Source of the DNA: Actinomycetota bacterium
GTDB lineage: Bacteria > Actinomycetota > Actinomycetes > S36-B12
Direction: 5' to 3'
Length of the DNA stretch: 64,000 nt
Assembly (NCBI GenBank): GCA_017856385.1
Contig: JAFMFD010000004.1
Location: 2,828 to 66,827, forward strand
Part shown: positions 1-30,669 of the stretch, piece after piece
Position numbering within the stretch: position 1 is the first letter of the stretch
How the letters are laid out: every line of letters begins with the position of its first letter
Notes under the pieces: model-generated
Database searches by the model: none
Told to the model about the DNA's origin: nothing
What the model saw: the letters and a program-made list of their open reading frames with translations, nothing else
Made by a program: the position numbers and the translations under genes

Positions 1-161
1 GACAGCTCGGTGACTCCGATCTCGCGCCGGCCGTAGGAGAACTCCTTGAGCACGCGGGCCGCGTTCCGCACGCTCGACAGCGACGAGTGCTGCCGGCCCT
101 CGCCTCCCTCCCTGACCTCGGGTGGATCCGCTGACGGCTCCTCGCGCGCACCGGGGGTCAT
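1..161 (-). CDS. IclR-family transcriptional regulator, N-terminal part only (gene continues past the left edge)
   Basis: Own minus-strand translation from ATG at 161: MTPGAREEPSADPPEVREGGEGRQHSSLSSVRNAARVLKEFSYGRREIGVTELS. This fits the winged-helix N-terminus pattern of IclR regulators. There is an ATGA start/stop overlap (158-161) with the upstream ORF. It is absent from the ORF track because it is truncated. Confidence 0.55.
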   Translation of the reverse strand, partial: MTPGAREEPSADPPEVREGGEGRQHSSLSSVRNAARVLKEFSYGRREIGVTEL

Positions 162-862
162 CGGGGCTCCCGGGAGACGGCCAGCAGTCGTCGTCGTGAC
201 TGCTCCGGAGGTGTGGTGGACAGGTCCCAGCCGGCGAGCTGGTCGTCGCCCGGTGCGATGGCTCGCGCGAGGAGCAGGGTGGCGGCACCGAGGTCGGACA
301 GCTCGGCGGCGCGCATCTCGGCGACGAGCCGCTCCTGGCGGGGGAGCAGGTGGGTGAGGGCGTCGTAGTCGCGGACGGCTGCCGCATGCGTGTGGGCCAG
401 GCCGGTTCCCGCGTGCTGCGCGTGATGGGCGGTCAGGCCCCCGCCCGGCGGCACCGTCAGGTGGTAGACGATCGTGCTCAGCCCCAGGAGCCCCCGGATC
501 CGCTCTCCGGAGCCGGGTGAGGTGTCGTCCAGCATGCCCAGGGCGGGCAGCACGACCGGGTCGAAGAAGCGCACGACCCACTCCAGGTCCCCCTCGCGCC
601 CGTCGATCACGACCTCGGGGCCGGCAGGTGCGGGCAGGGCGTCGGTCGTCCCGACCACGTGCAGGTTGCGGGCCCCGACAGCGGCGACCGTGAAGCGGCC
701 GGCGCGCAGGAGGGGCAGCCGGGCGCGGTCCCCGGGGGTCAGTCCGACGATGGCGTCGAGGTAGGCGCGGTGGAGCGAGGCGATGTAGGCGGCCATCGCC
801 GCGCGCATCCCGGCCGGGTCACCTGCAGGCCCTCCCCGCTCCGTGGGCACCTCGGGCTCCAT
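158..862 (-). CDS. hypothetical protein, family not recognised; apparently co-transcribed with the IclR gene
   Basis: ORF 158..961 trimmed to the ATG at 862 (MEPEVPTERGG...). Composition is coding-like. Its stop overlaps the IclR start. I recognise no motif. Start is uncertain; MRAAMAAY is an alternative. Confidence 0.45.
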   Translation of the reverse strand: MEPEVPTERGGPAGDPAGMRAAMAAYIASLHRAYLDAIVGLTPGDRARLPLLRAGRFTVAAVGARNLHVVGTTDALPAPAGPEVVIDGREGDLEWVVRFFDPVVLPALGMLDDTSPGSGERIRGLLGLSTIVYHLTVPPGGGLTAHHAQHAGTGLAHTHAAAVRDYDALTHLLPRQERLVAEMRAAELSDLGAATLLLARAIAPGDDQLAGWDLSTTPPEQSRRRLLAVSREPR

Positions 863-884
863 GGGCCCGGACGCTAGCACGAGC

Positions 885-1005: not shown

Positions 1006-1914
1006 ATGGGAATCCTGCGCTTGGGCCACGTCGACGTCACGGTGACCGATCTGGACCTGGCCACGGCGTACTACACCGAGGTGATCGGGCTGCTCGAGGT
1101 CGAGCGCGACGACGACTCGGTCTACCTCAAGTGCTGGGACGAGCCCAACCACCACTCCCTCCGGCTCATCTACGGCCCGCGGGTCGGCTTCGACCAGATG
1201 TCCTTCAAGGTCGAGCGGGAGTCCGACCTCGACGACTTCGAGAACGCCGTCCAGCGCTACGGGTTCCCCGTCCGCCGCGTCTCCAAGGGCGAGTCGGTGG
1301 GCCAGGGGGAGTCGATCCGGTTCGAGACGCCCTCGGGCCAGCAGATGGAACTGGTCCACGACGTCGAGATGACCGGCCGCGCGACGGCACGCATCAACCC
1401 TGCTCCCTTCGTGGAGGGACTGCGGGGCATCGCACCTCCACGGCTGGACCACGTGCTGGTGACCGCGGAGGAGGTGGGCGACTCGGCGCAGTTCTACCAG
1501 GACGTGTTCGGGTTCCGCCTGACCGAGCAGCTCATCGACGGGGCTGGGCACCAGATGGCGGTCTGGATGGAGACGTCCGGCCGCCCGCACGACCTCGCCA
1601 TCGTGTCGGGTCGCAACGGCGGCCTGCACCACTTCGCGTGGTGGCTCGACGACTGGGATCACGTGCGCAAGTCGGCCGACATCCTCGCCTACAACGGGAT
1701 CCAGATCGACGTCGGTCCGACGCGCCACGGGATCACCCGCGGCAACACCATCTACTTCTTCGACCCACTGGGCACGCGCAACGAGGTGTTCACCGGCGGC
1801 TATAAGCCCGATCCGGACTTCCCGACCATCACCTGGACCGAGGACAACATCGGCCGGGCCGTCTTCTACTACGAGGGTGAAGTGAACCAGCGCTTCATGA
1901 CGGTGCACACATGA
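1006..1914 (+). CDS. type I extradiol dioxygenase (catechol 2,3-dioxygenase-like, VOC superfamily), paralog 1
   Basis: ORF 913..1914 trimmed to ATG 1006, preceded by GGAGGAG at 997-1003. Two-domain VOC layout with LDHVLV, GLHHFAWW and FFDPLGTRNEVF, the His/His/Glu positions typical of Fe(II) extradiol enzymes. Confidence 0.85.
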   Translation: MGILRLGHVDVTVTDLDLATAYYTEVIGLLEVERDDDSVYLKCWDEPNHHSLRLIYGPRVGFDQMSFKVERESDLDDFENAVQRYGFPVRRVSKGESVGQGESIRFETPSGQQMELVHDVEMTGRATARINPAPFVEGLRGIAPPRLDHVLVTAEEVGDSAQFYQDVFGFRLTEQLIDGAGHQMAVWMETSGRPHDLAIVSGRNGGLHHFAWWLDDWDHVRKSADILAYNGIQIDVGPTRHGITRGNTIYFFDPLGTRNEVFTGGYKPDPDFPTITWTEDNIGRAVFYYEGEVNQRFMTVHT

Positions 1915-2822
1915 GCATCCTGAGACTTTCCCATGTCGAGATCCGCGTGCCGGATCTCGAGTTGGCCACCGCGTACTACACCGAGGTGGTCGGCATGTAC
2001 GAGACCGCCCGGGAGCCCGACCGCGTCTTCCTGAAGTGCTGGGACGAGCACCAGCACCACTCGCTCATCCTCACGTTCGCGCCCACCTACGGCCTGAACC
2101 ACATGGGCTGGAAGGTCTCCGAGCGTGCAGACCTCGACCACTACGCCGGTCGCCTCGAGGCCGCGGGCGTCGATGTCGTGCGCTTCGCCGCCGGCGAGAT
2201 AGGACCCGGACACGGCGAGGCCATCCGCTTCACGATGCCGAGCGGCCATGTGATGGAGCTCGTCCACGGCATGGAGCAGGTCGGGAACCTGCTGCCCAAC
2301 ACCAACCCCCCGCCGCGGCCCATCGGCCTCGTGGGATTCGCGCCGCCGCGCCTGGACCACGTGTTCCTCACCTGCGAGGACGTCGCGGGCAACACGTCCT
2401 TCCTCGTCGACGTGCTCGACTTCCACCTGACGGAGCAGATCCTCGGTGACGACGGGTTCCAGGTGGCGACGTGGCTGGAGCACTCGCACCACAGCCACGA
2501 CATCGCCCTGGTCACCGGGCAGGACCGGGGCCTGCACCACTTCGCGTGGTGGGTCGACGACTGGAATGCGATCCGTGAGGTAGCCGACGTTCTCGCGTAC
2601 CACGGTGTGCGGATCGAGACGAACCCGACGCGGCACGGTGCCACGCGTGGCCACTGCATCTACTTCTTCGACCCGGCGGGCAACCGCAACGAGGCGTTCA
2701 CCGGTGGCTACTGGGTCGACCCGGACGAGCCGCCCGTCACGTGGACCGAGGCGGAGATGGGGCGAGCCATCTTCTACTACGACGGCGTCGTGAACCAGCG
2801 ATTCCTGACCGTGCACAGCTGA
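1911..2822 (+). CDS. type I extradiol dioxygenase (catechol 2,3-dioxygenase-like), paralog 2
   Basis: ATGA overlap with paralog 1 at 1911-1914. Motifs LDHVFL, GLHHFAWW and FFDPAGNRNEAF. Collinear with paralog 1 over the full length. Confidence 0.85.
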   Translation: MSILRLSHVEIRVPDLELATAYYTEVVGMYETAREPDRVFLKCWDEHQHHSLILTFAPTYGLNHMGWKVSERADLDHYAGRLEAAGVDVVRFAAGEIGPGHGEAIRFTMPSGHVMELVHGMEQVGNLLPNTNPPPRPIGLVGFAPPRLDHVFLTCEDVAGNTSFLVDVLDFHLTEQILGDDGFQVATWLEHSHHSHDIALVTGQDRGLHHFAWWVDDWNAIREVADVLAYHGVRIETNPTRHGATRGHCIYFFDPAGNRNEAFTGGYWVDPDEPPVTWTEAEMGRAIFYYDGVVNQRFLTVHS

Positions 2823-2828
2823 GAGGCG

Positions 2829-3950
2829 ATGATGACGACATCCGAGCTCCAGCCGCCGGCCGCGCTCCCGCGGACCGAGCGCAACGATGCTCCGGCCTAC
2901 CTGCAGCGCTACCTCGACCGCGAGGGCCGCGGTGGCAAGCCGCACGAGGTGGACGATCGCGGTGGCGAGTCGGATGCGCCGCTCTACCTGCGCCGCTTCC
3001 GCGACCGGCGTACGGGAGCGAACCCGCTCGAGCAGCCCGTGCCCGAGTGGCAGGGCTCGGACCTCGGCGTCACGCAGGCCCGCGCCCGCCAGACGAAGTC
3101 CAAGGAGATCGTGCCGCCCGACACCGCTGCCGCCGGACCCAGGACGGTCACGCAGGTGCACATCATCCGGCATGGCGAGACCCAGGGGTACAGCACCGAG
3201 AGCGGGCTCACCCCGCTCGGCAGCTGGCAGGCCCACCGTCGCGGCTTCGACATCAGCAAGGGCGTGCGTGAGGGCGAGCGCATCCGGATCGTGTGCGCGG
3301 AGACCAACCGCGCCCGGCAGACCGCGGAGCAGATCCGCAAGGGCCTGCTCGACGGCCTGACCATGTGGGGACGCTCGGCGGACGTCTCGGCCGAGATCGA
3401 GGGCATGGAGGAGTTCCGCAACTTCCAGGTCTGGACCCCGGAGGGACTGCGCGACGTCACGGGGGCCTTCCGGCTCTACCAGAAGGAGATGGAGCGGTAC
3501 GAGCGGGTGGCGCACGGTGATCGCCCGCTGTGGCTGGTCGAGATCGACCGGTTCTGGCGGACCCAGCAGGGCGGCGGCGACCCCATCACGTACTGGACGC
3601 AGATACCGATGCTGTGCTTCGAGCCGCCGTCGGCCACCATCCGCCGATTCTGGGCCGGCATCCGTCGTGTGCGCGAGGGGACCCCCGGCGACCGCATCAT
3701 CGTCGCGACGCACTCCGGGCCCATCCGCGTCTTCGCGATGGCCGCCCACGGGTACGACCCTGGCGAGCCCTACAACACCGAGGAGGTCATCGTGAAGCTC
3801 CTCGAGGGTGACACCGGGGCCTTCCTGGCGTACCGGAACCGGGTCTCCGAGGTGCAGGTGCCGGCGCTGGACGAGCTGCCGGACTGGTGGGAGGGGCTGT
3901 CGGGCAGCGCTGTGCCCTCATCCCTGAGGGCGAAGGAGGTCTCGGCATGA
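2829..3950 (+). CDS. histidine phosphatase superfamily protein with an N-terminal extension of about 110 aa
   Basis: IIRHGETQGY (RHG catalytic motif) at about aa 112-121 and VATHSGPIR later in the protein. The N-terminal extension carries an internal repeat, APAYLQRYLDR / APLYLRRFRDR. Confidence 0.75.
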   Translation: MMTTSELQPPAALPRTERNDAPAYLQRYLDREGRGGKPHEVDDRGGESDAPLYLRRFRDRRTGANPLEQPVPEWQGSDLGVTQARARQTKSKEIVPPDTAAAGPRTVTQVHIIRHGETQGYSTESGLTPLGSWQAHRRGFDISKGVREGERIRIVCAETNRARQTAEQIRKGLLDGLTMWGRSADVSAEIEGMEEFRNFQVWTPEGLRDVTGAFRLYQKEMERYERVAHGDRPLWLVEIDRFWRTQQGGGDPITYWTQIPMLCFEPPSATIRRFWAGIRRVREGTPGDRIIVATHSGPIRVFAMAAHGYDPGEPYNTEEVIVKLLEGDTGAFLAYRNRVSEVQVPALDELPDWWEGLSGSAVPSSLRAKEVSA

Positions 3951-5026
3951 GCGGCTACGTGATGTGGTTCGAGGGCTACTGGGAGGGCCTGAAGCCGGAG
4001 GTCGGCGGCAAGGCGGCGAGCCTGGGGGAGATGACCGGCGCCGGCCTGCCGGTGCCACCCGGCTTCGCCCTGACCACGGCGGCGTTCCGGGACTCGCGTG
4101 ATGCGGCCGACCTCGACGCGACGCTCGCGCGACTGCTGCACGGCCTCGACACTGACGACACGGGCATGGTCGCGGACCGCTGCGGGCAGATCCGCGAGCA
4201 GATCACCCGGATGCCGGTCCCTGCGAACGTGGAGCAGTCGCTGCGGGACGCCTACGCGGAACTGTGCCGCCGCTGCGGGGTGTCCGACGTCCCCGTCGCC
4301 GTCCGGTCGTCGGCGACCAGCGAGGACTCCCCGGACGCCTCCTTCGCAGGCGAGCACGACACATACCTGTGGGTGCGCGGTGCAGATGATGTCGTGGACG
4401 CCGTGCGGCGCTGCTGGGCGTCCCTGTTCACCGATCGCGCCACCTGCTACCGCGTCGAGATGGGCTACGAGCACCGCACGGTGGAGATGAGCGTGGTGAT
4501 CCAGAAGATGGTCCGCCCGGTGTCCGCCGGGGTGGCCTTCACGCTCAACCCGTCGGACGGCGACCGTTCGACGATCGCCATCGACTCGGCCTGGGGGTTC
4601 GGCGAGGGTGTCGTCTCCGGTGAAGTCACCCCTGACAACTTCCTCGTCGACAAGGTCCTGTACGAGATCACCCGGCGGCGTGTCTGCGCCAAGGAGGTCG
4701 AGTTCACGCTCGACGGCGGTGATCGCGTCGTCAAGAGGCCACTGGAGGGGGAGCGCGCATCCGCCGCATCCCTTACCGACGACCAGATCAAGGCCATCGC
4801 GCGCCTGGCCCGCACCGCCGAGCGGCACTACGGATGCCCGCAGGACATCGAGTGGGCCGTCGACGCCGACCTCGGACAGGACAGCGCGATCGTGCTGCTC
4901 CAGGCGCGGCCCGAGACGGTGTGGAGCAAGAAGTCGGCAGAAGCCCCGTCTCCCGCAGCCGGAGCAGACATGATGTCCAGCATCGTCTCCACGCTCATGA
5001 ACCCGCTGAACAGTCGCAAGAGCTAG
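3947..5026 (+). CDS. PEP/pyruvate-binding (PPDK N-terminal, ATP-grasp) domain protein; ATP-binding subunit of a split PEP-synthase-like kinase (PpsB-like)
   Basis: ORF 3887..5026 trimmed to ATG 3947 (ATGA overlap with the upstream stop). Motifs GGKAASLGEM, VAVRSSATSEDSPDASFAGEHDTYL, SVVIQKMV and QDIEWAVD are typical of the nucleotide-binding domain of PEP synthase and PPDK. Confidence 0.85.
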   Translation: MSGYVMWFEGYWEGLKPEVGGKAASLGEMTGAGLPVPPGFALTTAAFRDSRDAADLDATLARLLHGLDTDDTGMVADRCGQIREQITRMPVPANVEQSLRDAYAELCRRCGVSDVPVAVRSSATSEDSPDASFAGEHDTYLWVRGADDVVDAVRRCWASLFTDRATCYRVEMGYEHRTVEMSVVIQKMVRPVSAGVAFTLNPSDGDRSTIAIDSAWGFGEGVVSGEVTPDNFLVDKVLYEITRRRVCAKEVEFTLDGGDRVVKRPLEGERASAASLTDDQIKAIARLARTAERHYGCPQDIEWAVDADLGQDSAIVLLQARPETVWSKKSAEAPSPAAGADMMSSIVSTLMNPLNSRKS

Positions 5027-5087
5027 CACAGCACGAGCCCCAGCACGGTACGACCCACCACCAGTCACGACACTCAAGGGAGTTCGC

Positions 5088-6896
5088 ATGGCAGATCGGT
5101 TCCCCAGCCCCTTCGACATCGCGGCACCCGAGGGTGCCGAGGGTTGGCAGCAGCTGTACACCTATTCGTCGCTGTTCTCCGAGGGGCGACGCGCATATGA
5201 GGACTCCATGTTCTGGTTCCAGGACGGCGTCCACTGGCCCACGGCCCTGCGCCCCTGGGACGCGACGCTGTTCGAGTACGCGATCACATCGCTCTCGCAG
5301 TACAACACCCGGCACCTGCAGGTCCCGCCTGCCAACGGCATCGACTTCCGGATCCTGAACGGCTACGCCTACCTCACTCCTGTTCCGGCCCCGGAGGCCG
5401 ACATCGAGGCCCGCGTGGCGAACTTCATGGATCGTGCCGGCTTCTACTTCATGAACTGGAACGACCTGTACGACAAGTGGATGGTGAAGATCCGCGATCT
5501 CGTCAAGGAGCTCGAGACCATCGACTTCGACCCGCTGCCCGAGCTCGAGGACGCTGACGGCATCGTCAAGTCGGGTGCGGGCCTGGGATCCGGCTGGAAG
5601 ATCCAGGCCGACTACCACAAGCTCCTGGACCTCGCGCTCAAGCTGTGGCAGTACCACTTCGAGTTTCTCAACCTCGGCTATGCGGCCTACTTGGACTTCT
5701 TCGGCTTCTGCAAGCAGTCCTGGCCGAACATCCCGGACCTGGCGATCGCCAAGATGGTCGCCGGTGTCGAGGTCGACCTGTTCCGTCCGGACGAGGAGCT
5801 GAAGCGCCTTGCGCGCCTCGCCCTCGACTCGGGAATTGCCGAGGCGTTCGCCACGGGCGATGTGGACGCCACATGCCAGATCCTCAAGGGCAGCGACGCG
5901 GGCAACGCCTGGATCGCCTCGTTCCAGGAGTCCGCGGAGCCGTGGTTCAACTTCTCGACCGGCTCGGGCTTCTACCACTCCGACAAGATCTGGATCGAGA
6001 ACGTCGAGATCCCGTTCGACTTCATCAGCAACTACATCAGCAAGCTGCAGAAGGGCGAGGATCTCGCGCGGCCGATGGAGGCCATCCGGGCGGAGCGCGA
6101 CCGGATCGTCAACGAGTACGCCGAGCTGCTCCCCAGCGATGCGGACCGCGAGGCATTCCAGGGCAAGCTGGGCCTGGCCCGCGTGGTGTTCCCGTACGTC
6201 GAGAACCACAACTTCTACGTCGAGCACTGGAGCCATTCGGTGATCTGGCGGAAGATGCGCCAGCTGGGCGAGCTGTTCGTCAAGGAGGGCTTCTGGACCG
6301 AGGCGAACGACATCTTCTTCCTCAAGCGCACCGAGGTGGAGGACGCCCTGTTCGACTACTTCCACTCGTGGGCGACCCCGGCCCCCGCGGCCGGTCCCTC
6401 CCACTGGCCGCAGGAGATCGAGCGGCGCCGGAGGATCCACTCGGCCCTCGCCGCGTGGAAGCCGACGCCGGCGATGGGCGTGCCGCCGGAGGTCATCACC
6501 GAGCCGTTCACCGTCATGCTGTGGGGCATCACCACCGACAGCGTTAGCGCCTGGCTCGGCGGCGGAGCGGGCGAGGACGGCGAGCTGCGCGGCATGTCGG
6601 CCTCGCCGGGCGTCGTCGAGGGCCTGGCCCGGGTCATCTTCTCCCCGGACCAGATCAGCGAGGTCCAGGAGGGCGAGATCCTGGTCGCCCCCCTCACGGC
6701 ACCGTCGTGGGCGCCCATCTTCGGCAAGATCCAGGCGACCGTCACGGACACCGGCGGCATGATGAGCCACGCCGCCATCGTCTGCCGCGAGTACGGCCTC
6801 CCGGCTGTCACCGGTACCGGGTTTGCCACGTCGACGATCAAGACGGGCGACCGGATCCGCGTCGACGGCACCAACGGCGTGGTCACGCTGGTCTGA
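5088..6896 (+). CDS. PEP-utilising enzyme mobile (swivel His) domain protein with a large unassigned N-terminal domain (PpsA-like subunit)
   Basis: C-terminal SPGVVEGLARVI...EGEILVAPLTAPSWAPIF...TDTGGMMSHAAIVCREYGLPAVTG is the phosphohistidine swivel domain. The first roughly 480 aa match no family I recognise. AAGGGAG lies upstream of the ATG. Confidence 0.85.
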   Translation: MADRFPSPFDIAAPEGAEGWQQLYTYSSLFSEGRRAYEDSMFWFQDGVHWPTALRPWDATLFEYAITSLSQYNTRHLQVPPANGIDFRILNGYAYLTPVPAPEADIEARVANFMDRAGFYFMNWNDLYDKWMVKIRDLVKELETIDFDPLPELEDADGIVKSGAGLGSGWKIQADYHKLLDLALKLWQYHFEFLNLGYAAYLDFFGFCKQSWPNIPDLAIAKMVAGVEVDLFRPDEELKRLARLALDSGIAEAFATGDVDATCQILKGSDAGNAWIASFQESAEPWFNFSTGSGFYHSDKIWIENVEIPFDFISNYISKLQKGEDLARPMEAIRAERDRIVNEYAELLPSDADREAFQGKLGLARVVFPYVENHNFYVEHWSHSVIWRKMRQLGELFVKEGFWTEANDIFFLKRTEVEDALFDYFHSWATPAPAAGPSHWPQEIERRRRIHSALAAWKPTPAMGVPPEVITEPFTVMLWGITTDSVSAWLGGGAGEDGELRGMSASPGVVEGLARVIFSPDQISEVQEGEILVAPLTAPSWAPIFGKIQATVTDTGGMMSHAAIVCREYGLPAVTGTGFATSTIKTGDRIRVDGTNGVVTLV

Positions 6897-7032: not shown

Positions 7033-8292
7033 ATGCTGACCGTCGAACAGAACGAGGAGCTCACCCGCGTCGGACCGGGAACGCCCATGGGCGAGCTGCT
7101 GCGGCGCTACTGGTACCCCATCGCCTTCGAGCAGGACTTCGACACCGTCCCGACCAAGACGGTGCGTCTGCTGGGGGAGAACTGGACGCTGTTCAAGACG
7201 CCCAAGGGCGGTCGGTACGGCATCGCGGCGGAGGCGTGCCCGCACCGCAATGCCTCCCTTACCTACGGCGTCGTTCACGAGGACGGCATCCGCTGCGGGT
7301 ACCACGGGTGGAAGTGGGACTTCGACGGCAACTGCGTCGAGCAGCCTGCCGAGGCGGACAACGAGAACTTCCGCACGCGCGTGAAGCAGAAGGTCGGCAA
7401 GGCCGAGGTGATGGGCGGCATGGTCTGGGTCTACGTCGGGCCGAGTCCCGCCCCGGAGCTGCCGCGCTTCGACGTCTTCGTCATGGACGGCGTCAAGGAC
7501 GTCGGCCACGCGACCCTGCCCTGCAACTGGCTCCAGATCATGGAGAACTCCGTGGATCCGCACCACGTCGAGTGGCTGCACGGCTACTACTTCGAGTTCC
7601 TCGGGCAGACGGAGGGGTTCGACGCACCCAAGGCCTTCCAGAAGAAGCACCTGCGCACCGGCTTCGAGGAGATGGAGTGGGGGATCCTCAAGAGGCGTGT
7701 GCTCGAGGGCGGCTCGGAGGAGAACGACGACTGGAAGGTCGGTCACCCGCTGGTGTTCCCCTTCTACATGCGCGTGGGCGGAGCGGGGATCGACCAGATG
7801 CAGATCCGGGTGCCCATCGACGACACCACCACGTGGAAGCTCTTCTACTCCAACCATGCACCCGAGGCGGGTGTCTGGGAGCCGCAGGACCGTCCGGTCG
7901 TCTACGAGTACCGGTGGCGCGATGAGCAGGGCCGCTTCATCACCGACTACATCGAGGGCCAGGACATCATGGCCTGGGTCTCGCAGGGCCCGATCACCGA
8001 TCGCACGCAGGAGCATCTCGGTCGCTCCGACGCGGGCGTGGCGATGCTGCGGAAGATGTTCAAGGAGAACATGAGGAAGGTCGCAGCCGGCGAGGATCCC
8101 CTGGGCACGGTCCGTGAGAAGCACGACATCATCCCGCTGCCCTGCGAGCGCGACAAGTTCGGTGCCGAGCGGGAGTTCGCCGAGGCCTTCATCACGATGG
8201 GCTCCATGCGGTACAGCCCCAACAAGCAGGCCCTGCTGGACCTCCACGCCGACGCCTGGGCACGCCGCGAGGGCGCCAAGGCGAAGGCGTGA
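7033..8292 (+). CDS. Rieske [2Fe-2S] non-heme iron oxygenase, alpha subunit only (phthalate-dioxygenase-like family)
   Basis: ORF 6823..8292 trimmed to ATG 7033 (GAGAGGA upstream). The N-terminus MLTVEQNEELTRVGPGTPMGELLRRYWYPI is typical of the family. Rieske motif CPHRNASL...CGYHGW. Mononuclear iron motif NSVDPHHVEWLH. No beta subunit gene is present. Confidence 0.85.
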   Translation: MLTVEQNEELTRVGPGTPMGELLRRYWYPIAFEQDFDTVPTKTVRLLGENWTLFKTPKGGRYGIAAEACPHRNASLTYGVVHEDGIRCGYHGWKWDFDGNCVEQPAEADNENFRTRVKQKVGKAEVMGGMVWVYVGPSPAPELPRFDVFVMDGVKDVGHATLPCNWLQIMENSVDPHHVEWLHGYYFEFLGQTEGFDAPKAFQKKHLRTGFEEMEWGILKRRVLEGGSEENDDWKVGHPLVFPFYMRVGGAGIDQMQIRVPIDDTTTWKLFYSNHAPEAGVWEPQDRPVVYEYRWRDEQGRFITDYIEGQDIMAWVSQGPITDRTQEHLGRSDAGVAMLRKMFKENMRKVAAGEDPLGTVREKHDIIPLPCERDKFGAEREFAEAFITMGSMRYSPNKQALLDLHADAWARREGAKAKA

Positions 8293-8546
8293 GCGTGATG
8301 CTCCCGCCTGACCCGCACCGGCTCCCGCCGCCCAGCGCGTGGTTCGCCAGGGATGCCGAGCGTCACCTGCTCGACCGTCCGCGGTTCTGTCCCATGTGCG
8401 GTGAGGGCCTCGACACCGACGGCGGCATCACAACGGAGTACTGGGCTGGCGACGCCCGGCACTTCATGACCTGGTGCGGGGAGTGCAGCTGGTTCGGCGA
8501 GGTCGTGCGCTTCGACATGGTCACGATCACCGAGGCGGAGCACTGA
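8289..8546 (+). CDS. small four-Cys (zinc-ribbon or rubredoxin-like) protein, 85 aa
   Basis: GTG start with a GTGA overlap on the Rieske stop (8289-8292). CPMCG and CGEC motifs lie 25 residues apart. Third codon positions are mostly G/C, as in neighbouring genes. I recognise no family. Confidence 0.5.
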   Translation: MSVMLPPDPHRLPPPSAWFARDAERHLLDRPRFCPMCGEGLDTDGGITTEYWAGDARHFMTWCGECSWFGEVVRFDMVTITEAEH

Positions 8547-9211
8547 CCCTGGGAGCGGGCGAGGCGAGGGCCCTGGTCCTCGATTTCGGAGGGCCCGTGC
8601 TCCTCACCCCGTTCGAGCTCCGCCATGTGGGCGAGCGCAACCTGGGGCTGGCCACTGGCAAGTTCGCCTGGACCGGTCCCTTCGATCCCGAGGCCGACGC
8701 CGACTGGCAGGCCTTCCAGTCCGGGGGCATGAACGAGCGCGAGTACTGGGCGCGGCGTGCCGAGGAGTTCAGCGCGCTGACCGGACAGCCCGCCACGATG
8801 CCGGCACTCTTCGCACCGATGTACGCCGGGACGGAAGACGAGCTCGTGCGGCCCGCCGCGCGTCGGCTCATCGCCGACGCCCGAGCCGCCGGCATCCCTG
8901 TCGGGGTGCTGACCAATGACCTGACCAGCTTCCACGATCGGGAGTGGCTCGAGCGCATGACGATCCTGCGGGAGTTCGACGTGATCGTGGACGGCCGGAC
9001 CGAGGGTGTCTACAAGCCCGACCCGGCGGCCTACCGGCTCATCGTCGAGCGGATGGGCATCGATCCGACGACGACCGTCTTCGTCGACGACCAGCCGGTC
9101 AACCTGCGCGGATCCGAGGCGGTCGGGCTGGTGCCCGTGCACCTGGATCCCACGGACCCCGGGCCAGGGTTTAGGTTGGCCCGGTCGCTGTTGGGCCTTT
9201 CACAGGAGTAG
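8474..9211 (+). CDS. HAD-superfamily hydrolase
   Basis: Motifs LVLDFGGPVL (motif I), GVLTND, YKPDPAAY and VFVDDQ. The start is unresolved. GTG 8474 would overlap the small ORF by 73 nt. In-frame CTG 8543/8549 or GTG 8576 are alternatives. Confidence 0.7.
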   Translation: MRGVQLVRRGRALRHGHDHRGGALTLGAGEARALVLDFGGPVLLTPFELRHVGERNLGLATGKFAWTGPFDPEADADWQAFQSGGMNEREYWARRAEEFSALTGQPATMPALFAPMYAGTEDELVRPAARRLIADARAAGIPVGVLTNDLTSFHDREWLERMTILREFDVIVDGRTEGVYKPDPAAYRLIVERMGIDPTTTVFVDDQPVNLRGSEAVGLVPVHLDPTDPGPGFRLARSLLGLSQE

Positions 9212-9213
9212 CC

Positions 9214-10557
9214 ATGCGCGTTGCCGTCGTCGGTTCGGGTCCCTCGGGCGTGTACGCGGCCGATGCCCTCGTGTCGCAGGACGAGATCCCCGTCGAGGTC
9301 GACATCATCGACCGGCTGCCGGTCCCGTTCGGGCTGGTCCGCTACGGCGTCGCCCCGGACCACCTCAGCATCCGCTCGGTCCGCGACACCCTGAACAAGG
9401 TGCTCGCCAAGCCCGGGGTGCGCTTCCTCGGCAATGTCGTCGTGGGCCAGGACGTCTCGACGGCGGAACTGCTCGCCCACTACGACGCCGTGGTGCTCAC
9501 CTACGGCGCCTCGCGCGACCGGCGCCTGGGCATCCCCGGTGAGGACCTCGACGGGAGCGTCGCGGCCACGGACTTCGTCGCGTGGTACTGCGGCCATCCC
9601 GACGCTGACCGTGAGCTCTTCGAGCGGCTGCTCCCCACGGCCACGTCCGCAGTGGTCGTGGGTGTCGGCAATGTCGCCGTGGACGTCACCCGCGTGCTGG
9701 CCAAGACGGTCGGCGAGCTCGACCACACAGACATGCCCCAGCACGTGCTGGACACCCTGGCGGCCTCGTCGATCACGGACGTGCACCTGCTCGGCAGGCG
9801 GGGTCCGGCCCAGGCGACCTTCACGACCAAGGAGCTCAAGGAGCTCGGCGAGCTGATCGACGCCGACGTGATCGTCCACCCCGACGAGATCGAACTGGAC
9901 GAGCCCAGCGCCGCACTCGCTGCCGAGGATCGCGCGGTGGGCAGGAACGTCGACGTGATCCGCGGATGGGCGGACCGACCGAATACGGGACGGGGCCGGC
10001 GCATCCATGTGCGGTTCCTGAGCCGACCGGTCGAACTGCTCGGCGATGACCGGGTTCGCAGCGTCGTCGTCGAGCGCACGCGACTGACACCGGATGGCGG
10101 CGTGGAGGGCACGGGCCAGATGGAGGAGATCGCGGCGGACCTGGTCGTCCGGTCGGTGGGATACCGCGGCACGCCGCTGGAGGGCCTGCCGTTCGACGAG
10201 CGCCGCAACGTGATCCCCCACGTCGACGGTCGGGTCGTCGACGGGGACTCCCCGGTGCGCGGCATGTACGTGGCTGGCTGGATCAAGCGCGGCCCGACCG
10301 GGATCATCGGAACCAACAAGAAGGACGCGGTCGGCACGGTCGAGTCGCTCCTGGCCGACGCGCGGGCCGGGGTGCTGCCGGCCCCCGCATCGCCCGAGCC
10401 CATCGAGGATCTGCTGGCATCACGCGGCGTGGACGTCGTCACGACCTCGGGGTGGGACGCCATCGATGCTGCCGAGCAGGCACTGGGCCAGCAGTCCGGA
10501 CGCGAGCGGACGACGATCCACGAGCGTGACCGCATGCTGGAGATCGCGCAAGGCTGA
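9214..10557 (+). CDS. fprA: FprA-type (adrenodoxin-reductase-like) NADPH:ferredoxin oxidoreductase
   Basis: MRVAVVGSGPSGVYAAD (FAD fold) and a second dinucleotide motif, VVVGVGNVAVDV. Length is 447 aa. The start lies 2 nt after the HAD stop. Confidence 0.8.
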   Translation: MRVAVVGSGPSGVYAADALVSQDEIPVEVDIIDRLPVPFGLVRYGVAPDHLSIRSVRDTLNKVLAKPGVRFLGNVVVGQDVSTAELLAHYDAVVLTYGASRDRRLGIPGEDLDGSVAATDFVAWYCGHPDADRELFERLLPTATSAVVVGVGNVAVDVTRVLAKTVGELDHTDMPQHVLDTLAASSITDVHLLGRRGPAQATFTTKELKELGELIDADVIVHPDEIELDEPSAALAAEDRAVGRNVDVIRGWADRPNTGRGRRIHVRFLSRPVELLGDDRVRSVVVERTRLTPDGGVEGTGQMEEIAADLVVRSVGYRGTPLEGLPFDERRNVIPHVDGRVVDGDSPVRGMYVAGWIKRGPTGIIGTNKKDAVGTVESLLADARAGVLPAPASPEPIEDLLASRGVDVVTTSGWDAIDAAEQALGQQSGRERTTIHERDRMLEIAQG

Positions 10558-10565
10558 CCCGGCGG

Positions 10566-11519
10566 CTAGTGCCAGTGCGCGGCGGCGGCGGGTGTTCCGG
10601 TCTCCCAGCGATGCACCGGCGTCGGCTCCGCTCCGCAGGACTCGGGCCGCCTCTGCTGACCGGTCACCGGTCGCACGGGCACCCGCCACGCGCGGCCGTC
10701 CGCATGCCGGACCTCCAGCTCTGACTCCACGGTCGGCACCGCCCACCCTGCGTCGACGGGCACGGCGCGGCCGTTGACGACGGCGAGCACGTCGAGGACG
10801 TCGGCACGGTCCTCGACCAGCGCCTGACGGACGGCGATCTCGGCGGCCTGCATCGGTGCGGGCAGTGCGGTCCGGCCACGCAACCGGTCGACGATCACGC
10901 GATCGGAGTCGAGCAGCGCGGCCGCCTCATCGACCGTCACGCGACCATGCACCATGCCGCTCGGCAGGCTCAGGGTCACCGGGGCGAAGCGGTGGCCGCC
11001 GAGGTGGCTGCACTCCCAGATCCGGGCGGACTGCTCGGGTGTGGCGAGGGCGGCCAGCGTGTCCAGCAGGCCCCGTCCGAGCCGGGCGCAGCAGGCGTCC
11101 CGTCGACCATGCGTGCAGACGAGCAGGACCGGCTCCCGGGTGCCCTGCTCGAGCGCGGGCAGCCGACCGGCGGCAAGGTCCGCCGGGTCGACACGTGCCA
11201 GGTCGCCGAGGTCGGCCAGGTCCGGCACCACCGCGCGTCGTGTGTAGGCCCCGCCCGGGGCGGTGCGCGCCACCAGCACGACGGTGCCGTGGGCGGCCTC
11301 GCGGCGCCCCGGCCGGCGCATGAGCACGACCTGCACGCCTGCGGCCTTGAACGCGAGCAGCAGTGCGCGGGTCGCATCGGGCAGGACGCTTTCCGCGATT
11401 GCATCGCGTCCCCATGGCCCGGGATGCTCCACCGCAACCCAGGTGAGGGCGTGCGGCGCGGTCCCGGCCAGCGGTTCGCCGATCTCCGCGGAGAGCAGTG
11501 AGCAGGGCTCGGTCACCAT
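10566..11519 (-). CDS. sucrase/ferredoxin-like (thioredoxin-like [2Fe-2S]) family protein
   Basis: ORF 10566..11648 trimmed to ATG 11519 (MVTEPCSLL). Motifs [17 protein letters not shown] and [13 protein letters not shown]. Its start overlaps the parC stop by 7 nt. Confidence 0.65.
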
Positions 11520-13957
11520 GTCCCCGCCACGGCATCGATAGGTGCGGTGCCGCCCGTTCCGGCACTGTCCCGACGCGGGTCGGGGTCGGGCAGCGCGACG
11601 GGGACGCCGGAGGCCGTCGCCGCACGTGCGGGCCCCGATCCGGCCCATGCAGTGATGATGCGGTCCTCACCGGACCGGAACCGGTGGCACCGGACCCCCG
11701 CGGTGCCCCGGCCCTTGCGGGGATACTCCAGCAGGGGCGTGACCTTGACGCTGCCCGCCTCGGTCCCGGGCAGGGCGGCGGAGGAGCCGGAGATGGTCAC
11801 GACCTGCGCGCGGTCGTCGGCCGGCACGGCAGCGAATGCCACGGCCACTGCGCCGGGGGACAGTCGGATCCCGGCCATGCCGGCGGCCGAGCGGCCCTGG
11901 GGGCGCACCGAGGCCGCGGGCATGCGCAGGAGCTGCGCATCGGACGTGATGAAGACCAGGTCGGCGGTCTCGGCAAGACCCTCGGGCAGGCGCGCGACTC
12001 CCACGACCTCGTCGCCGTCGTCCAGCCGGATGACCTCCCAGGCCGACTTGCTCTGCAGCGTCTCGGGCACGACCCGCTTGACGGTCCCCTGCGCTGTGCC
12101 GAGGGCGAGGGCACCCGCCTCGTCGAGCGTCGTGAGGCACAGCGGGCGCTCGCCCGAGGGCAGGTCGACGAACGCCCCCAGCGGCGCGCCGCCCGACAGG
12201 CTGGGTGTGCCGGCGACCGCAGGCAGGCCGGGCAGGTCGAGAACGGCGAGCCGGTGGATGCGTCCGGCGGACGTCACCAGGCCGATCTCGCCCTTGGTGG
12301 TGGCTGGCACCACGCTGACGACGACATCGTGCGAGGACCGCGAGTCCATCGTGGGCAGGGCGCTGCCGCTCGGCTCCGGCATCCGGGCGAGCAGGCCCGT
12401 GCTCGACATCAATACCAGGCAGGGCCCGTCGTCGACCTCGAGCGGCACTGCGGCGCTCACCGGGGCCGATCCCTCCATCAGCAGGGTGCGCCGCGGCGTG
12501 GCATGCGCCTGGGCGGCCTCACCGATCTCCCGCGACACCTGGGCGCGCAGTTCGGCCGGGTCGCCCAGGATGCGGGTCAGCTCGTCGATGGTCCTGCGCA
12601 GCTCGTCCTGCTCCGCTTCCAGCTCGATCCGTGAGAACTTCGTCAACCGCCGCAGCGGCATGTCGAGGATGTAGTTGGCCTGCTCCAGTGAGAGGTCGAA
12701 CACCGTCATGAGGCGCTCGCGAGCCTTGGCCGCATCGTCGGACTCCCGGATGAGCTGGATGACCTCGTCGATGTCGATGATCGCGACCAAGAGTCCCTCG
12801 ACGAGGTGCAGCCGCTCGCGGGCGCGGGTGCGTCGGTAGTCGCTGCGCCGGCGCACCACGTCGAGCCGGTGGTCCAGCCAGACCTGCAGAAGGGCGCGCA
12901 GCCCGAGCGTCTGGGGCTGACCGTCGACCAGGGCGACGGCGTTGATCGTGAAGGTGTCCTCCATCGGCGTGAGCCGGTACAGCTGCTCGAGGATCGCCTC
13001 GGCGTGGAAGCCGTTCTTGACCTCGATGACCAGGCGGAGGCCCGAGTCGCCATCCGTCAGGTCGATGACATCGGAGATGCCCTGGAGTCGTTTGGACTGG
13101 ACGGCGTCCTTGATCCGGTCGATCACCTTCTCCGGACCTATGCCGTACGGCAACTCTGTGACGACGATGCCGCGGCGACGCGCACTGGTCTGCTCGATGC
13201 GGGTCCGGGCGCGCACGCGGAACGTGCCGCGTCCGGACGCATAGGCGTCGCGGACACCGTCCAGTCCCACGATGACCCCGCCGCCGGGCAGGTCGGGGCC
13301 GGGGAGGAGGGTCATGAGGTCGGCGAGGGTGGCCTCCGGGTGCTCGAGCAGGTGCCGCGCCGCATTGAGGACCTCGCCTAGGTTGTGCGGTGCGAGTGAC
13401 GTGGCCATGCCCACCGCGATGCCAGCACCGCCGTTGACCAGCAGCTGGGGAATCGCCGCGGGCAGGACCTCGGGCTCGCGCTCCCGACCGTCGTAGTTGG
13501 GCACGAAGTCGACGACGTCCTCGTCGAGGCCTGCGGTCATGTCGAGTGCCGGCGGAGCGAGCCGCGCCTCGGTATAGCGCATCGCGGCAGGGCCGTCGTC
13601 AAGCGACCCGAAGTTGCCGTGGCCGTCAATCATCGGCAGGCGAAGGCTGAACGGCTGCGCCATCCGCACCAGTGCGTCGTAGATGGCGGAGTCGCCATGG
13701 GGGTGGAGCCGGCCCATGACCTCGCCGACCACGCGTGCGCTCTTGACGTGGCCGCGGTCCGGACGCAGGCCCATCTGAGCCATCTGGAACAGGATGCGAC
13801 GCTGGACAGGCTTCAGGCCGTCGCGGGCGTCGGGCAGGGCCCGTGAGTAGATGACCGAGTAGGCGTACTCCAGGAAGGATCCGCGCATCTCCGCGGCGAC
13901 GTCGATGTCGACGATCCGCCCGGGGCCCTCGGGCGGGGCGGGAGTGCGGCGAGGCAT
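11513..13957 (-). CDS. parC: DNA topoisomerase IV subunit A
   Basis: The 1327-aa ORF is trimmed to ATG 13957 ([20 protein letters not shown]...). Motifs [49 protein letters not shown] and AMRYTEARL (active-site Tyr region). The trimmed protein is 814 aa. Confidence 0.85.
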
Positions 13958-14086
13958 GCGGGCCCTTCTCGGTGTCTTGCTCGTGCGAACCAGGTGTGGA
14001 GTCGATTCTCGTGCCTGGCGCGGGTCAGGCCGGGATCGACACGTCGACACCCGTCGCCTGCCCGGCCGTCGGGGGGCAGTGGAAGA

Positions 14087-14680
14087 ATGCCACGCATGAG
14101 TGATCCGGCCCTCGCGACCCGCCTGCGCAGTGACATCCAGAGGTCGGGCTACTACCCGGACCTCGTCGCCGATGCGCTGGACACCGCCCTCGCCGGGGAG
14201 CCCCTGGTGTCGTACGTCGTTCACCACGAGGCCACCTTCGATCGCGACGAGCTGCGCCGTCACATCACGGTGCTGGCCCTGACGCCGACGCGGCTCATCG
14301 TCGAGCACACCGACGAGCACCCGGCGGACGAGGCCCACGCAGTCGCCTCCGCCACCGCCTCGACCGAGGCCGTCCGCATCGAGCGCGTGGACTCCGTCGT
14401 GGTATCGCGCGTCGTGAGCGACCCCGCGCGCCATGCCCCGGGCGGCTCGGCCGCGGAGGTGGTCCTCACCATCGGCTGGGGGGCGGTCAGCCGCCTGGAC
14501 CTCGAGCCGGCGAGCTGCGGCGACCCCTCCTGCGATGCCGACCACGGGTACACCGGGACCTCGAGCAACGACGACCTGTCGGTCCGGGTGTCCGAGGCGG
14601 CCGACGGTGCTGACGTCGTCGCCCAGGTGCTCGCCTTCGCCGCCGCCCTGTCGCTGGCGACGGCAGAGCGAGTGCGCTGA
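14087..14680 (+). CDS. conserved actinobacterial protein (recalled as DUF5998 family)
   Basis: ORF 13994..14680 trimmed to [27 protein letters not shown] (ATG 14087 or 14096). The family assignment is from memory only. Confidence 0.55.
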
Positions 14681-14683
14681 CCT

Positions 14684-15778
14684 GTGGCGGACCGCCTCGT
14701 CACCCTCGCGGACGTCGGCACCTCCGCCGCAGCAGCATTGGGCCTGCCCGGCTGCAGTGATCGGATCGGGCTCGGCTCGGCACGCGCGGTCGTCGTGTGC
14801 CTGATCGACGGTCTCGGCTGGCAGTCCCTGCAGGACCACACAACCAGCGCGCCCTTCCTCGCGAGCATGGCGGGTCGGTCCATCGCGGCGGCCTTCCCGA
14901 CCACGACGCCGGTGGGCCTGGCCAGCCTGGGCACCGGCCTGCTCGCCGGTGCCCACGGGCTGGTGGGGGCTGCGTTCGAACTGCCGGAGACCGGCGAGGT
15001 GCTCGCTCCCCTGCAGTGGGGCCATCGACCGAACGCCCTGGCGGTGCAGCCGGACCCGACCCTTTTCGAGCGCATGGCCTCCCACGGCATCCGGGTGAGC
15101 ACACTGAGTCCGTCCGCCTACGAGCAGTCCGGCCTGACGCGCGCGGTGCTGCGCGGCGGCGCGTATGAAGCGGTGGAGGACATCGGATCCCGGGTCGAGC
15201 GGGTGCGTGCACTCACCGCTGACCCGGCACGCTCGTTCACATACGTCTACTGGGGTGAGCTGGACCGCGTGGGCCACGAGCATGGCGTCGACAGCGCGGC
15301 CTGGCGCGACGCGCTGAGCAGGGTCGATCGGCTGGTGGAGCGCCTCAGCGAGGCCCTCGCCCCAGGAACCTGCATGGTCGTGACGGCCGACCACGGGATG
15401 GTCGACAGCCCGCCGCATGCGAGGTTCGACCTGGACGCGGAGCCCCTGCTTCGGGCCGGAGTCCGCCGCTGGGCAGGGGAGCCCCGCATGCGCCACGTGT
15501 ACACCGACGAGCCCGAGTGGGTGGCGGCCGCGTGGCGTGACGTGCTCGGCGCACGGGCCGACGTCCTGACTCGCGACGAGATGGTGGACCGGGGACTGAT
15601 GGGGCCTTTGTCACCGGACCACGTGGACCGCGTGGGAAACGTCCTCGCCATCGCCCGGGACCACTGGATCCTCGCCAGCCGGGTGGATGCGCTCGTCTCC
15701 GGGCTGCGCGGCCAGCATGGCGGCCTGACGCCGCAGGAGGTGCTCATCCCCGCGCTCGTCGAGCGCACTGCCGACTGA
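14684..15778 (+). CDS. alkaline phosphatase / nucleotide pyrophosphatase-phosphodiesterase family protein
   Basis: Motifs [35 protein letters not shown] and VVTADHGM are the metal-ligand pattern of the alkaline-phosphatase superfamily. GTG start lies 3 nt after the upstream stop. Confidence 0.7.
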
Positions 15779-15785
15779 GGCGGCG

Positions 15786-28011: not shown

Positions 28012-30669
<2,658 letters not shown>

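Follow-up and report, generated by a model that had tools for sequence, protein, structure and literature searches.

Three known types of pathway begin with the phosphorylation of a phenol and continue either by a carboxylase (Pps and Hpe/Acv) or by a cytochrome P450 (Cre). The kinases that open them, PpsAB, CreHI and HpeHI/AcvAB, are two-component small-molecule dikinases, a family defined by a separate ATP-grasp component (I) and an H component with substrate and swivel domains like those of rifampin phosphotransferase (RPH), by the motif T/S-x-x-G-G-x-x-x-H, and by a Met that replaces the regulatory Thr of phosphoenolpyruvate (PEP) synthase; their mechanism involves the ATP-binding component, a phospho-histidine swivel and a phenolic acceptor (PMC12167813). 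Aerobic members have been known since 2016: the first step of 4-cresol catabolism in Corynebacterium glutamicum is catalysed by CreHI, that of acetovanillone and 4-hydroxyacetophenone catabolism in Rhodococcus and Sphingobium by HpeHI and AcvAB, and an RPH-like fold of the H component has already been reported for HpeH (PMC9618137, PMC12167813). Of 836 cases, no more than 52 have the kinase gene in a cluster with carboxylase genes (PMC13101465), and therefore many family members must work in other, uncharacterised settings. One of these is described here. It lies in a stretch of 64,000 nucleotides from an actinomycetotal genome of the S36-B12 lineage (GCA_017856385.1, contig JAFMFD010000004.1, positions 2,828 to 66,827), hereafter the window, in which the genes of an I and an H component are embedded in a conserved block with those of a Rieske non-haem iron oxygenase, a histidine phosphatase and two catechol 2,3-dioxygenases (C23Oa and C23Ob). 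By analogy with the described systems, this block may encode an aryl-phosphate route to catechol meta-cleavage by way of kinase, Rieske oxygenase and phosphatase, a reading that we hold with moderate confidence.

A first-pass annotation, made from the sequence of the window, had seen the surprise of this locus in a Pps-like kinase in an aerobic context. The setting is real, but the aerobic homologues CreHI and HpeHI/AcvAB were already characterised. The unexplained part is the partner set of the kinase, which that annotation had seen in general terms only.

The kinase pair and its place among the two-component dikinases

Both open reading frames (ORFs) of the first-pass annotation, for I and H, were recovered at the same positions (Table 1). 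The window has a GC content of 70%, and GC at third codon positions (GC3) was used to tell real genes; values of 0.89-0.93 for the I and H ORFs mark both as such. The I gene starts with the ATG at 3947, directly preceded by GAAGGAGG, and has its stop at 5026, whereas H starts with the ATG at 5088, preceded by AAGGGAG, and stops at 6896. I ends 61 nt upstream of H and encodes a separate ATP-grasp polypeptide of the 40-kDa class beside the histidine carrier. The split into chains of about 40 and 67 kDa, for which PpsAB had been named as the likeness, is borne out by masses of 38.9 and 67.5 kDa and by 47-48% identity to the Pps-type proteins.

In terms of domain content, I is an isolated ATP-grasp domain, as had been proposed: Pfam finds PPDK_N alone (E 2.9e-112, profile positions 2-319 of 328). 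The best PDB match of I is 9goj, a stand-alone ATP-grasp chain of 387 aa (1.9e-83) that is presumably HpeI, followed by the N-domains of PEP synthases and by RPH. In H, Pfam finds only the PEP-utilizers mobile domain (residues 527-597, E 3.3e-25), and no Pfam domain was found in residues 1 to ~500. The motif quoted in the first-pass annotation, GGMMSHAAIVCREYGLPAV, is present at residues 556-574 and identifies H561 as the swivel histidine. The complete swivel motif reads T553-D-T-G-G-M-M-S-H561, with M559, two residues ahead of the histidine, in the place of the regulatory Thr of PEP synthase, and the TDTGGMMSH-type motif is kept in all members of the window clade as well as in the Cre, Pps and Hpe references.

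The N-terminal part of H, previously unassigned and singled out as the candidate for substrate binding, becomes readable in an AlphaFold2 model (pLDDT 83, pTM 0.86). The top six Foldseek matches of this model in the PDB are all rifampin phosphotransferase of Listeria (RPH-Lm; E 4e-15 to 3e-11), aligned over the full length (~600-626 columns) at 16-17% identity, while all matches below RPH-Lm cover the swivel domain alone. As modelled, the ~500 N-terminal residues are the counterpart of the RPH substrate-binding domain; a known domain is thus present, but with the substrate-binding role that had been expected of it, and the proposed likeness to the single-chain RPH is upheld in the same alignment. 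With RPH-Lm (PDB 5fbt, 5hv1) the pair shares the three-domain logic and the fold of the substrate and swivel domains; RPH differs in being a single chain of 860 aa with an antibiotic substrate and in standing outside catabolic operons.

These features fit the published definition of the family in the split genes, the motif, the Met, the RPH-like N-domain and sequence membership. On sequence and model grounds, I and H can be assigned firmly to the two-component small-molecule dikinases, because of their domain content, a match of NCBIfam PRK08296.1-2 that spans the whole of H above its cut-off (849.6 bits against 650), the structural match to RPH, and the motif T-x-x-G-G-x-M-S-H with its Met. 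A resistance or detoxification kinase like RPH, or a split PEP synthase or PPDK of central metabolism, would also account for the RPH-like fold of H and for the partial matches of NCBIfam PEP synthase models to I and to the swivel domain. We regard this as extremely improbable: the pair shares no more than 16-17% of its residues with RPH and lies within a catabolic operon, and Pfam finds no PEP/pyruvate-binding TIM barrel (PEP-utilizers_C) in either protein. Moreover, the NCBIfam models of PEP synthase, PPDK and RPH match only in part (ATP-grasp or swivel) and far below their cut-offs, with 338 and 101 bits against 740 for TIGR01418 (PEP synthase), whose third domain is absent, and 274 and 110 bits against 999 for the RPH models NF041857/NF000283, which describe a single chain of ~860 aa where the genes here are split.

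Reference clusters for the family were plasmid-borne loci found by tblastn and typed by synteny. Those of Cre type (Rhodococcus ruber Y14 and R. oxybenzonivorans pRB98; L084, L086) encode an HD hydrolase, IclR, P450, I, H, a short-chain dehydrogenase/reductase (SDR), ferredoxin, reductase, a second HD hydrolase and an aldehyde dehydrogenase; the Pps-type reference (Azoarcus sp. KH32C pAZKH; L085) has H, I, a CBS protein and ppcBDAG with UbiD/UbiX; and those of Hpe/Acv type (Rhodococcus sp. JS3073, L087, and Rhizobium leguminosarum pRlBT01c, L089) have H, I, a biotin carboxylase system, a HAD protein and a CoA ligase. For the window H, identity amounts to 54% with the Cre-type, 47% with the Pps-type and 44-48% with the Hpe-type proteins, in line with the roughly 45% expected between subfamilies of the family, and I follows the same pattern, with 47-48% identity to the Pps- and Cre-type I components. 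In trees rooted on a distant split pair from a nonribosomal peptide synthetase (NRPS) cluster of Bacillus cereus, the window clade is monophyletic in 187 (H) and 197 (I) of 200 bootstraps and sister to the Cre type in 183 (H) and 143 (I), lying outside the Cre-type pair. The order I-then-H is common to the two clades. The pair therefore has its place among the Pps-, Cre- and Hpe-type kinases rather than beside PEP synthase or PPDK, which answers the question of clustering that the first-pass annotation had raised. Judged by sequence, it appears to form a new, separate branch of a known family, the aerobic setting by itself not being new.

A conserved block of kinase, oxygenase, phosphatase and ring-cleavage genes

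A scan of species-representative genomes yielded 80 loci with an H component 66-95% identical to that of the window; the counts below cover those loci with enough flanking sequence. The carriers are metagenome-assembled genomes (MAGs) of Nanopelagicales type and other actinobacterial MAGs, cultured Longivirga, Nocardioides, Micromonospora, Nostocoides and Blastococcus, and some MAGs of Acidimicrobiia; among the cultured carriers are Longivirga aurantiaca CGMCC 4.7317, Nocardioides aquiterrae JCM 11813, Blastococcus jejuensis JCM 15614 and Micromonospora globispora S2901. The block opens with two minus-strand genes, for IclR and a conserved protein termed unk240. In the opposite direction follow those for C23Oa, C23Ob, the histidine phosphatase, I, H, the Rieske oxygenase and an 82-aa protein, and in most loci also that for a HAD hydrolase. 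A Rieske gene follows H in 71 of 71 loci, and the linkage is equally complete for the 82-aa protein (69/69), C23Oa (69/69) and C23Ob (72/72); it is nearly so for the histidine phosphatase (72/73), IclR (62/64), unk240 (63/67) and HAD (60/67).

Two features of the surroundings vary between lineages. The genes of the lower meta-cleavage pathway (hydratase, DmpF, DmpG, 4-oxalocrotonate decarboxylase, tautomerase and aldehyde dehydrogenase) always lie beside the block: in the lineage of the window they are found upstream and on the other strand, whereas Nocardioides, Micromonospora and Blastococcus have them downstream, on the strand of the block. The redox partner is likewise swapped, an FprA-like reductase and a Rieske ferredoxin in the lineage of the window being replaced in these three genera by a reductase of PDR/VanB type, which has 322 aa (NAD_binding_1 and Fer2) and takes the position of FprA (L045, 14057-15025; L047, 14090-15058; L083, 14091-15059). 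Kinase, oxygenase, phosphatase and the two C23Os would act in one pathway, because they remain linked where redox genes are exchanged and the lower pathway switches sides, and this is the strongest evidence for such joint action. Three metagenome contigs carry an identical H protein and reach further upstream than the window; on one of them (L002) the Rieske-type ferredoxin is found upstream. The FprA/GltD-like reductase is the probable electron donor of the oxygenase in this lineage.

The partner set sets this block apart from the three described types. Like CreHI, the 4-methylphenol kinase of C. glutamicum, the window pair has two components in the order I then H, an aerobic host and a place in the closest clade, and Cre-type clusters share with it an identical swivel motif (TD-x-GGMMSH), an IclR regulator, an oxygenase with its own redox partners and dedicated phosphohydrolases. 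However, the Cre partners are a P450, a 2Fe-2S ferredoxin, a reductase, HD phosphohydrolases, an SDR and an aldehyde dehydrogenase, in place of which the window has a Rieske oxygenase, a histidine phosphatase, a HAD hydrolase and two C23Os; the end product is 4-hydroxybenzoate in the former and would be a catechol for meta-cleavage in the latter. PpsABC of Thauera/Aromatoleum consists of the same two polypeptides (H 47%, I 48% identical), with the same phospho-histidine mechanism expected, but is anaerobic, has the order H then I, and is accompanied by the CBS protein PpsC and by PpcABDG with UbiD/UbiX, partners that are absent here. The hydroxyphenylethanone kinases HpeHI/AcvAB also have two components, aerobic hosts, an RPH-like fold of H and a dedicated phosphatase in the cluster; they differ in the H sequence (44-48% identical), in the order H then I, and in being coupled to a biotin-dependent carboxylase and a CoA ligase. 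Searches by tblastn across the 64-kb window gave no hit at 1e-3 for PpsC, PpcA/B/D/G and UbiD/UbiX from Azoarcus KH32C, and no homologue of the Cre partners (P450, 2Fe-2S ferredoxin, ferredoxin reductase, HD phosphohydrolase, SDR, aldehyde dehydrogenase) or of the Hpe/Acv partners (biotin-dependent carboxylase, the phosphatase HpeD, CoA ligase). Two observations of the first-pass annotation, that a PpsC-like CBS protein and a carboxylase are missing and that the neighbours are O2-dependent enzymes, accordingly stand, the latter in the form of the two C23Os upstream and the Rieske oxygenase downstream.

The oxygenase is an alpha-only member of the phthalate dioxygenase (PDO) family. Its best PDB match is PDO (7fjl, 2.8e-46), followed by RO_CH34 and 9ina, and its metal ligands C69, H71, C88, H91, D175, H178, H183 and D311 are invariant in 76 sequences. 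With the phthalate and isophthalate dioxygenases (PDO_KF1 7fjl, RO_CH34 7fhr, 9ina) it shares the alpha-only organisation and identical metal ligands, as well as, in many carriers of the block, a PDR/VanB-type reductase. The closest plasmid-borne relatives are 47-48% identical, and the nearest relatives act on aromatic anions (phthalate, isophthalate). The clusters of these relatives contain a Gfo/Idh/MocA dehydrogenase, a decarboxylase of class II aldolase type or of 4,5-dihydroxyphthalate decarboxylase type, and a PDR-type reductase, and are typical dihydroxylating systems for aromatic acids. In the window, by contrast, kinase and phosphatases are linked to the oxygenase instead, and neither a dihydrodiol dehydrogenase nor a decarboxylase of the kinds found in those clusters is present in the block.

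The small protein that follows the Rieske gene has four conserved Cys (CPMC...CGEC) and resembles a zinc ribbon or a rubredoxin. A homologue of 66 aa (43% identity, 4e-12) stands directly after a 48%-identical Rieske gene on a Peribacillus plasmid (L092, 9320-9520), and since this cluster has no kinase, the 82-aa protein probably belongs to the oxygenase module; from its sequence it looks like an undescribed small partner of this Rieske subfamily.

The same observations are what an alternative would build on, in which kinase and oxygenase are not sequential. The Rieske enzyme would form catechol directly from an aromatic anion that carries no phosphate, for example a hydroxy- or amino-benzoate, while kinase and phosphatase would trap or scavenge a phenolic compound, protect the cell or regulate. 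The nearest Rieske relatives indeed use carboxylated aromatics and have no kinase, the small Cys4 partner also occurs without one, and substrate trapping has been proposed as a role of such kinases by Dexter et al. Nevertheless, this separation is hard to square with the adjacency of H and Rieske in 71 of 71 loci across orders of Actinomycetota, in which redox partners and the side of the lower pathway vary, or with the lack of the decarboxylase or dehydrogenase of the relatives' clusters. We consider it unlikely.

A predicted aryl-phosphate route to catechol

By analogy with PpsAB/CreHI/HpeHI and RPH, the proposed route would start with the binding of ATP by I and the transfer of its pyrophosphoryl group to H561, from which the gamma-phosphate would be lost, yielding AMP and Pi. 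Phospho-H561 would then swing to the N-terminal domain of H and pass the beta-phosphate to the hydroxyl group of a bound phenolic compound. The kinase would be the entry step of an aerobic operon, and the aryl phosphate would be the substrate of the adjacent Rieske oxygenase, working with its 82-aa Cys4 partner and the reductase; the phosphate would offer this member of the phthalate family an anionic handle. An aryl phosphate as oxygenase substrate and catechol as product are suggested because the operon resembles a classical phenol meta-cleavage operon in which kinase, Rieske oxygenase and phosphatase stand in place of the phenol hydroxylase. The catechol or alkylcatechol formed would pass to the two C23Os and on to the neighbouring lower pathway. 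Both C23Os are genuine, being closest in the PDB to true enzymes of XylE type (for C23Oa 5znh, XylE 1mpy and 3hpv); they are 54% identical to each other, and the start of C23Ob overlaps the stop of C23Oa.

The chemistry of the oxygenase step could take one of three forms. The enzyme may hydroxylate the ring ortho to the phosphate ester (a), or O-demethylate a guaiacyl phosphate (b), in either case with subsequent removal of the phosphate by the histidine phosphatase and usually also by the HAD hydrolase; alternatively, it may carry out an ipso/ortho dihydroxylation from which phosphate leaves spontaneously (c). Versions (a) and (b) are favoured because the phosphatase is universal, and version (c) because the relatives of the Rieske enzyme are dioxygenases and a dihydrodiol dehydrogenase is missing. 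In its boldest form, which we put forward tentatively and regard as rather doubtful, the oxygenase would be a phosphate-directed "phenylphosphate dioxygenase" that replaces phenol hydroxylase, attacks the ester-bearing and the ortho carbon and expels phosphate, and that may serve to scavenge trace phenolics.

The position of the kinase beside the Cre type suggests a route closer to that pathway. A 4-alkylphenol would be phosphorylated, the Rieske enzyme would take the place of the P450 CreJ and oxidise the alkyl or methyl group, and the phosphatase would free a hydroxybenzyl alcohol or hydroxybenzoate. The sister relationship, the common gene order and the presence of phosphatases, as in cre clusters, are consistent with this, and Rieske enzymes of the phthalate family include methyl monooxygenases. 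However, counterparts of the alcohol and aldehyde dehydrogenases CreG/CreC are missing from the conserved block, and such a route would deliver its end products to protocatechuate, whereas the block is invariably joined to two genuine C23Os and a catechol meta-pathway. The Cre-like side-chain route is, in our view, improbable. The meta-cleavage end of the block would also suit an arylamine as substrate, since aerobic aniline pathways likewise end in catechol meta-cleavage. Phosphorylation would in that case yield a phenylphosphoamidate, the product proposed for the Pps-like enzyme of Desulfatiglans anilini, and catechol would be set free by the Rieske dioxygenase. Activity of Pps homologues on aniline has been reported (PMC7500099). 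Nothing amine-specific is found in the cluster, though, and the closest typed relatives (Cre, Pps, Hpe) all act on phenolic hydroxyls, which makes an arylamine substrate very improbable.

Several points weigh against the aryl-phosphate route to catechol or against its individual versions. When the PDO residues that bind the phthalate carboxylates (PMC8649396) are compared by sequence alignment alone, the Arg231 position is kept basic within an invariant K220-R221-R222, whereas Arg207, Arg244, Ser179 and Ser182 are not conserved, so that the idea of phosphate as a handle rests on analogy. The closest Rieske relatives use carboxylates and work with a dihydrodiol dehydrogenase. Spontaneous loss of phosphate, as in version (c), would make a universally conserved phosphatase unnecessary, and a monooxygenase activity, as in (a) and (b), would depart from relatives that are dioxygenases. 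The expense of two ATP equivalents per phenol hydroxylation is high in comparison with flavin or di-iron phenol hydroxylases. On the side of the kinase, phenol, cresols, alkylphenols and guaiacols are indistinguishable by sequence as substrates; the trees are by neighbour-joining alone, with few reference sequences, and these references, typed by synteny, stand in for the characterised CreH, HpeH and PpsA.

What appears to be new is the branch of the kinase together with its pathway combination. Full-text literature searches, to which most subscription journals were outside coverage, returned no paper linking such a kinase to a Rieske oxygenase, a catechol 2,3-dioxygenase or the oxygenation of an aryl phosphate. 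Two candidate precedents were set aside: riboflavin/lumichrome catabolism in Nocardioides (PMC12746152), with Rieske and extradiol enzymes, involves no kinase, and MarK of Novosphingobium (PMC12624787) is an aromatic kinase of the unrelated family UPF0261. If the proposed route from aryl phosphate by Rieske oxygenase to catechol meta-cleavage is true, it would be a fourth type of pathway opened by phenol phosphorylation, with new oxygenase chemistry, and a second example of a phosphate that directs or anchors the oxidation of a C-H bond or a ring. The block is present in at least 80 species-level genomes, including abundant freshwater lineages (Nanopelagicales-type MAGs), and is widespread in freshwater and soil Actinomycetota; it may have a part in how phenolics from lignin and humic matter are turned over when they are scarce. 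Three protein families that had no functional context, those of the 82-aa Cys4 protein, the divergent histidine phosphatase and the His-rich unk240, gain one from the block, which is well defined and directly testable in cultured strains.

Other genes of the block and related loci

Table 1. Genes of the conserved block in the 64-kb window
Feature	Position	Strand	Size	Basis or remark
IclR/PcaR-type regulator, first 53 codons	3-161	-		Remainder before window start
unk240, conserved protein	158-880	-	~216-240 aa	Divergent from operon; conserved part starts at Met 808
Catechol 2,3-dioxygenase paralogue a (C23Oa)	1006-1914	+	302 aa	TIGR03211, 369 bits against cut-off 320
Catechol 2,3-dioxygenase paralogue b (C23Ob)	1911-2822	+	303 aa	TIGR03211, 366 bits
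Divergent histidine phosphatase (His_Phos_1 branch)	2829-3950	+	373 aa	Pfam His_Phos_1, 6e-12
I component, ATP-grasp nucleotide-binding protein of dikinase	3947-5026	+	359 aa, 38.9 kDa	PPDK_N
H component, substrate-binding domain (1 to ~500) and phospho-histidine swivel domain (~500-602)	5088-6896	+	602 aa, 67.5 kDa	
Rieske non-haem iron oxygenase, alpha-only, phthalate-dioxygenase family	7033-8292	+	419 aa	Pfam Rieske, LigXa_C
Four-Cys protein, zinc-ribbon or rubredoxin-like	8298-8546	+	82 aa	After Rieske
HAD-IA hydrolase	8474-9211	+		Pfam Hydrolase, 3.2e-17
FprA/GltD-like FAD-NAD(P)H reductase	9214-10557	+	447 aa	Pyr_redox_2; in only 23 of 60 loci

The histidine phosphatase is joined closely to the kinase, as its stop overlaps the start of I (ATGA), which indicates translational coupling to I. 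Its RHGET and THSGP motifs are invariant in 75 homologues. An N-terminal extension of ~100 aa (2829-3140) contains the short, conserved motif AP-x-YL-x-R-[YF]-x-DR twice and gave no family or structure match. As for the HAD hydrolase, the usual gene call starts at the GTG at 8597, and the nucleophile motif L-D-F-G-G lies upstream of that start. This motif I, which is without the usual second Asp (D-x-G instead of D-x-D), is conserved at the protein level in 68 loci, and is reached only from the GTG at 8474 or 8483, with an overlap of 64-73 nt with the preceding gene, or from a non-standard start.

At the other end of the block, tblastn with the IclR protein of the identical metagenome contig L002 gave 100% identity over residues 1-53, and NCBIfam places this regulator in the PcaR/PcaU/PobR family (8e-54). 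The divergent gene unk240 has a GC3 of 0.88. Its protein family comprises 765 members, none of them named or carrying a Pfam domain, and seven histidines are invariant. AlphaFold2 models the protein with confidence (pLDDT 92.6), but a Foldseek search of the PDB gave no significant match (best E 0.23, TM at most 0.21). PDB sequences likewise yielded no significant hit to profiles of unk240 or of the phosphatase, and Pfam scans at relaxed thresholds returned noise alone for the 82-aa protein, for unk240 and for the N-terminus of the phosphatase.

The block ends at 10557 and borders on ordinary actinobacterial genes (10566-16526), which encode a Suc_Fer-like protein, a DNA topoisomerase IV/GyrA-like protein (as called on L001), DUF5998, a type I phosphodiesterase and DUF3071. 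The location of the block is thus chromosomal in this genome, and no genes of mobile elements were noticed in this flank. Further along the window, an ORF of 885 aa (28012-30669) was considered as a second kinase, a full-length PEP synthase or RPH, and proved to be aconitase. Among the carriers, eight loci (L004, L010, L011, L020, L024, L037, L052 and L061) come from MAGs with titles naming Bifidobacteriaceae, Bifidobacterium breve, Actinomyces or Rubrivirga. These titles seem to clash with the sequence and the closest relatives of the high-GC block and are probably taxonomic mislabels.

Split pairs of this kinase family were also met in other surroundings. The distant pair of the Bacillus cereus plasmid p1 (L091, 2962-5566; H 24% and I ~30% identical to the window proteins) is placed between an NRPS and a thioesterase inside the NRPS cluster, which suggests a role in natural-product modification. 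On the megaplasmid of Thermomicrobium roseum (L088, 8986-11917), an H/I pair 46% identical to that of the window stands in an operon without known partner enzymes, with an accC-like biotin carboxylase and an enzyme of xanthine-dehydrogenase type nearby. Finally, a plasmid of the haloarchaeon Haladaptatus salinisoli (L090, 1-9948) carries an H/I pair ~40% identical beside an alpha/beta Rieske ring-hydroxylating dioxygenase; a metallophosphoesterase, a NUDIX hydrolase and two dehydrogenases, one for aldehydes and one a zinc alcohol dehydrogenase, are also encoded there. The kinase family thus seems to have been paired with a Rieske oxygenase a second time, independently.

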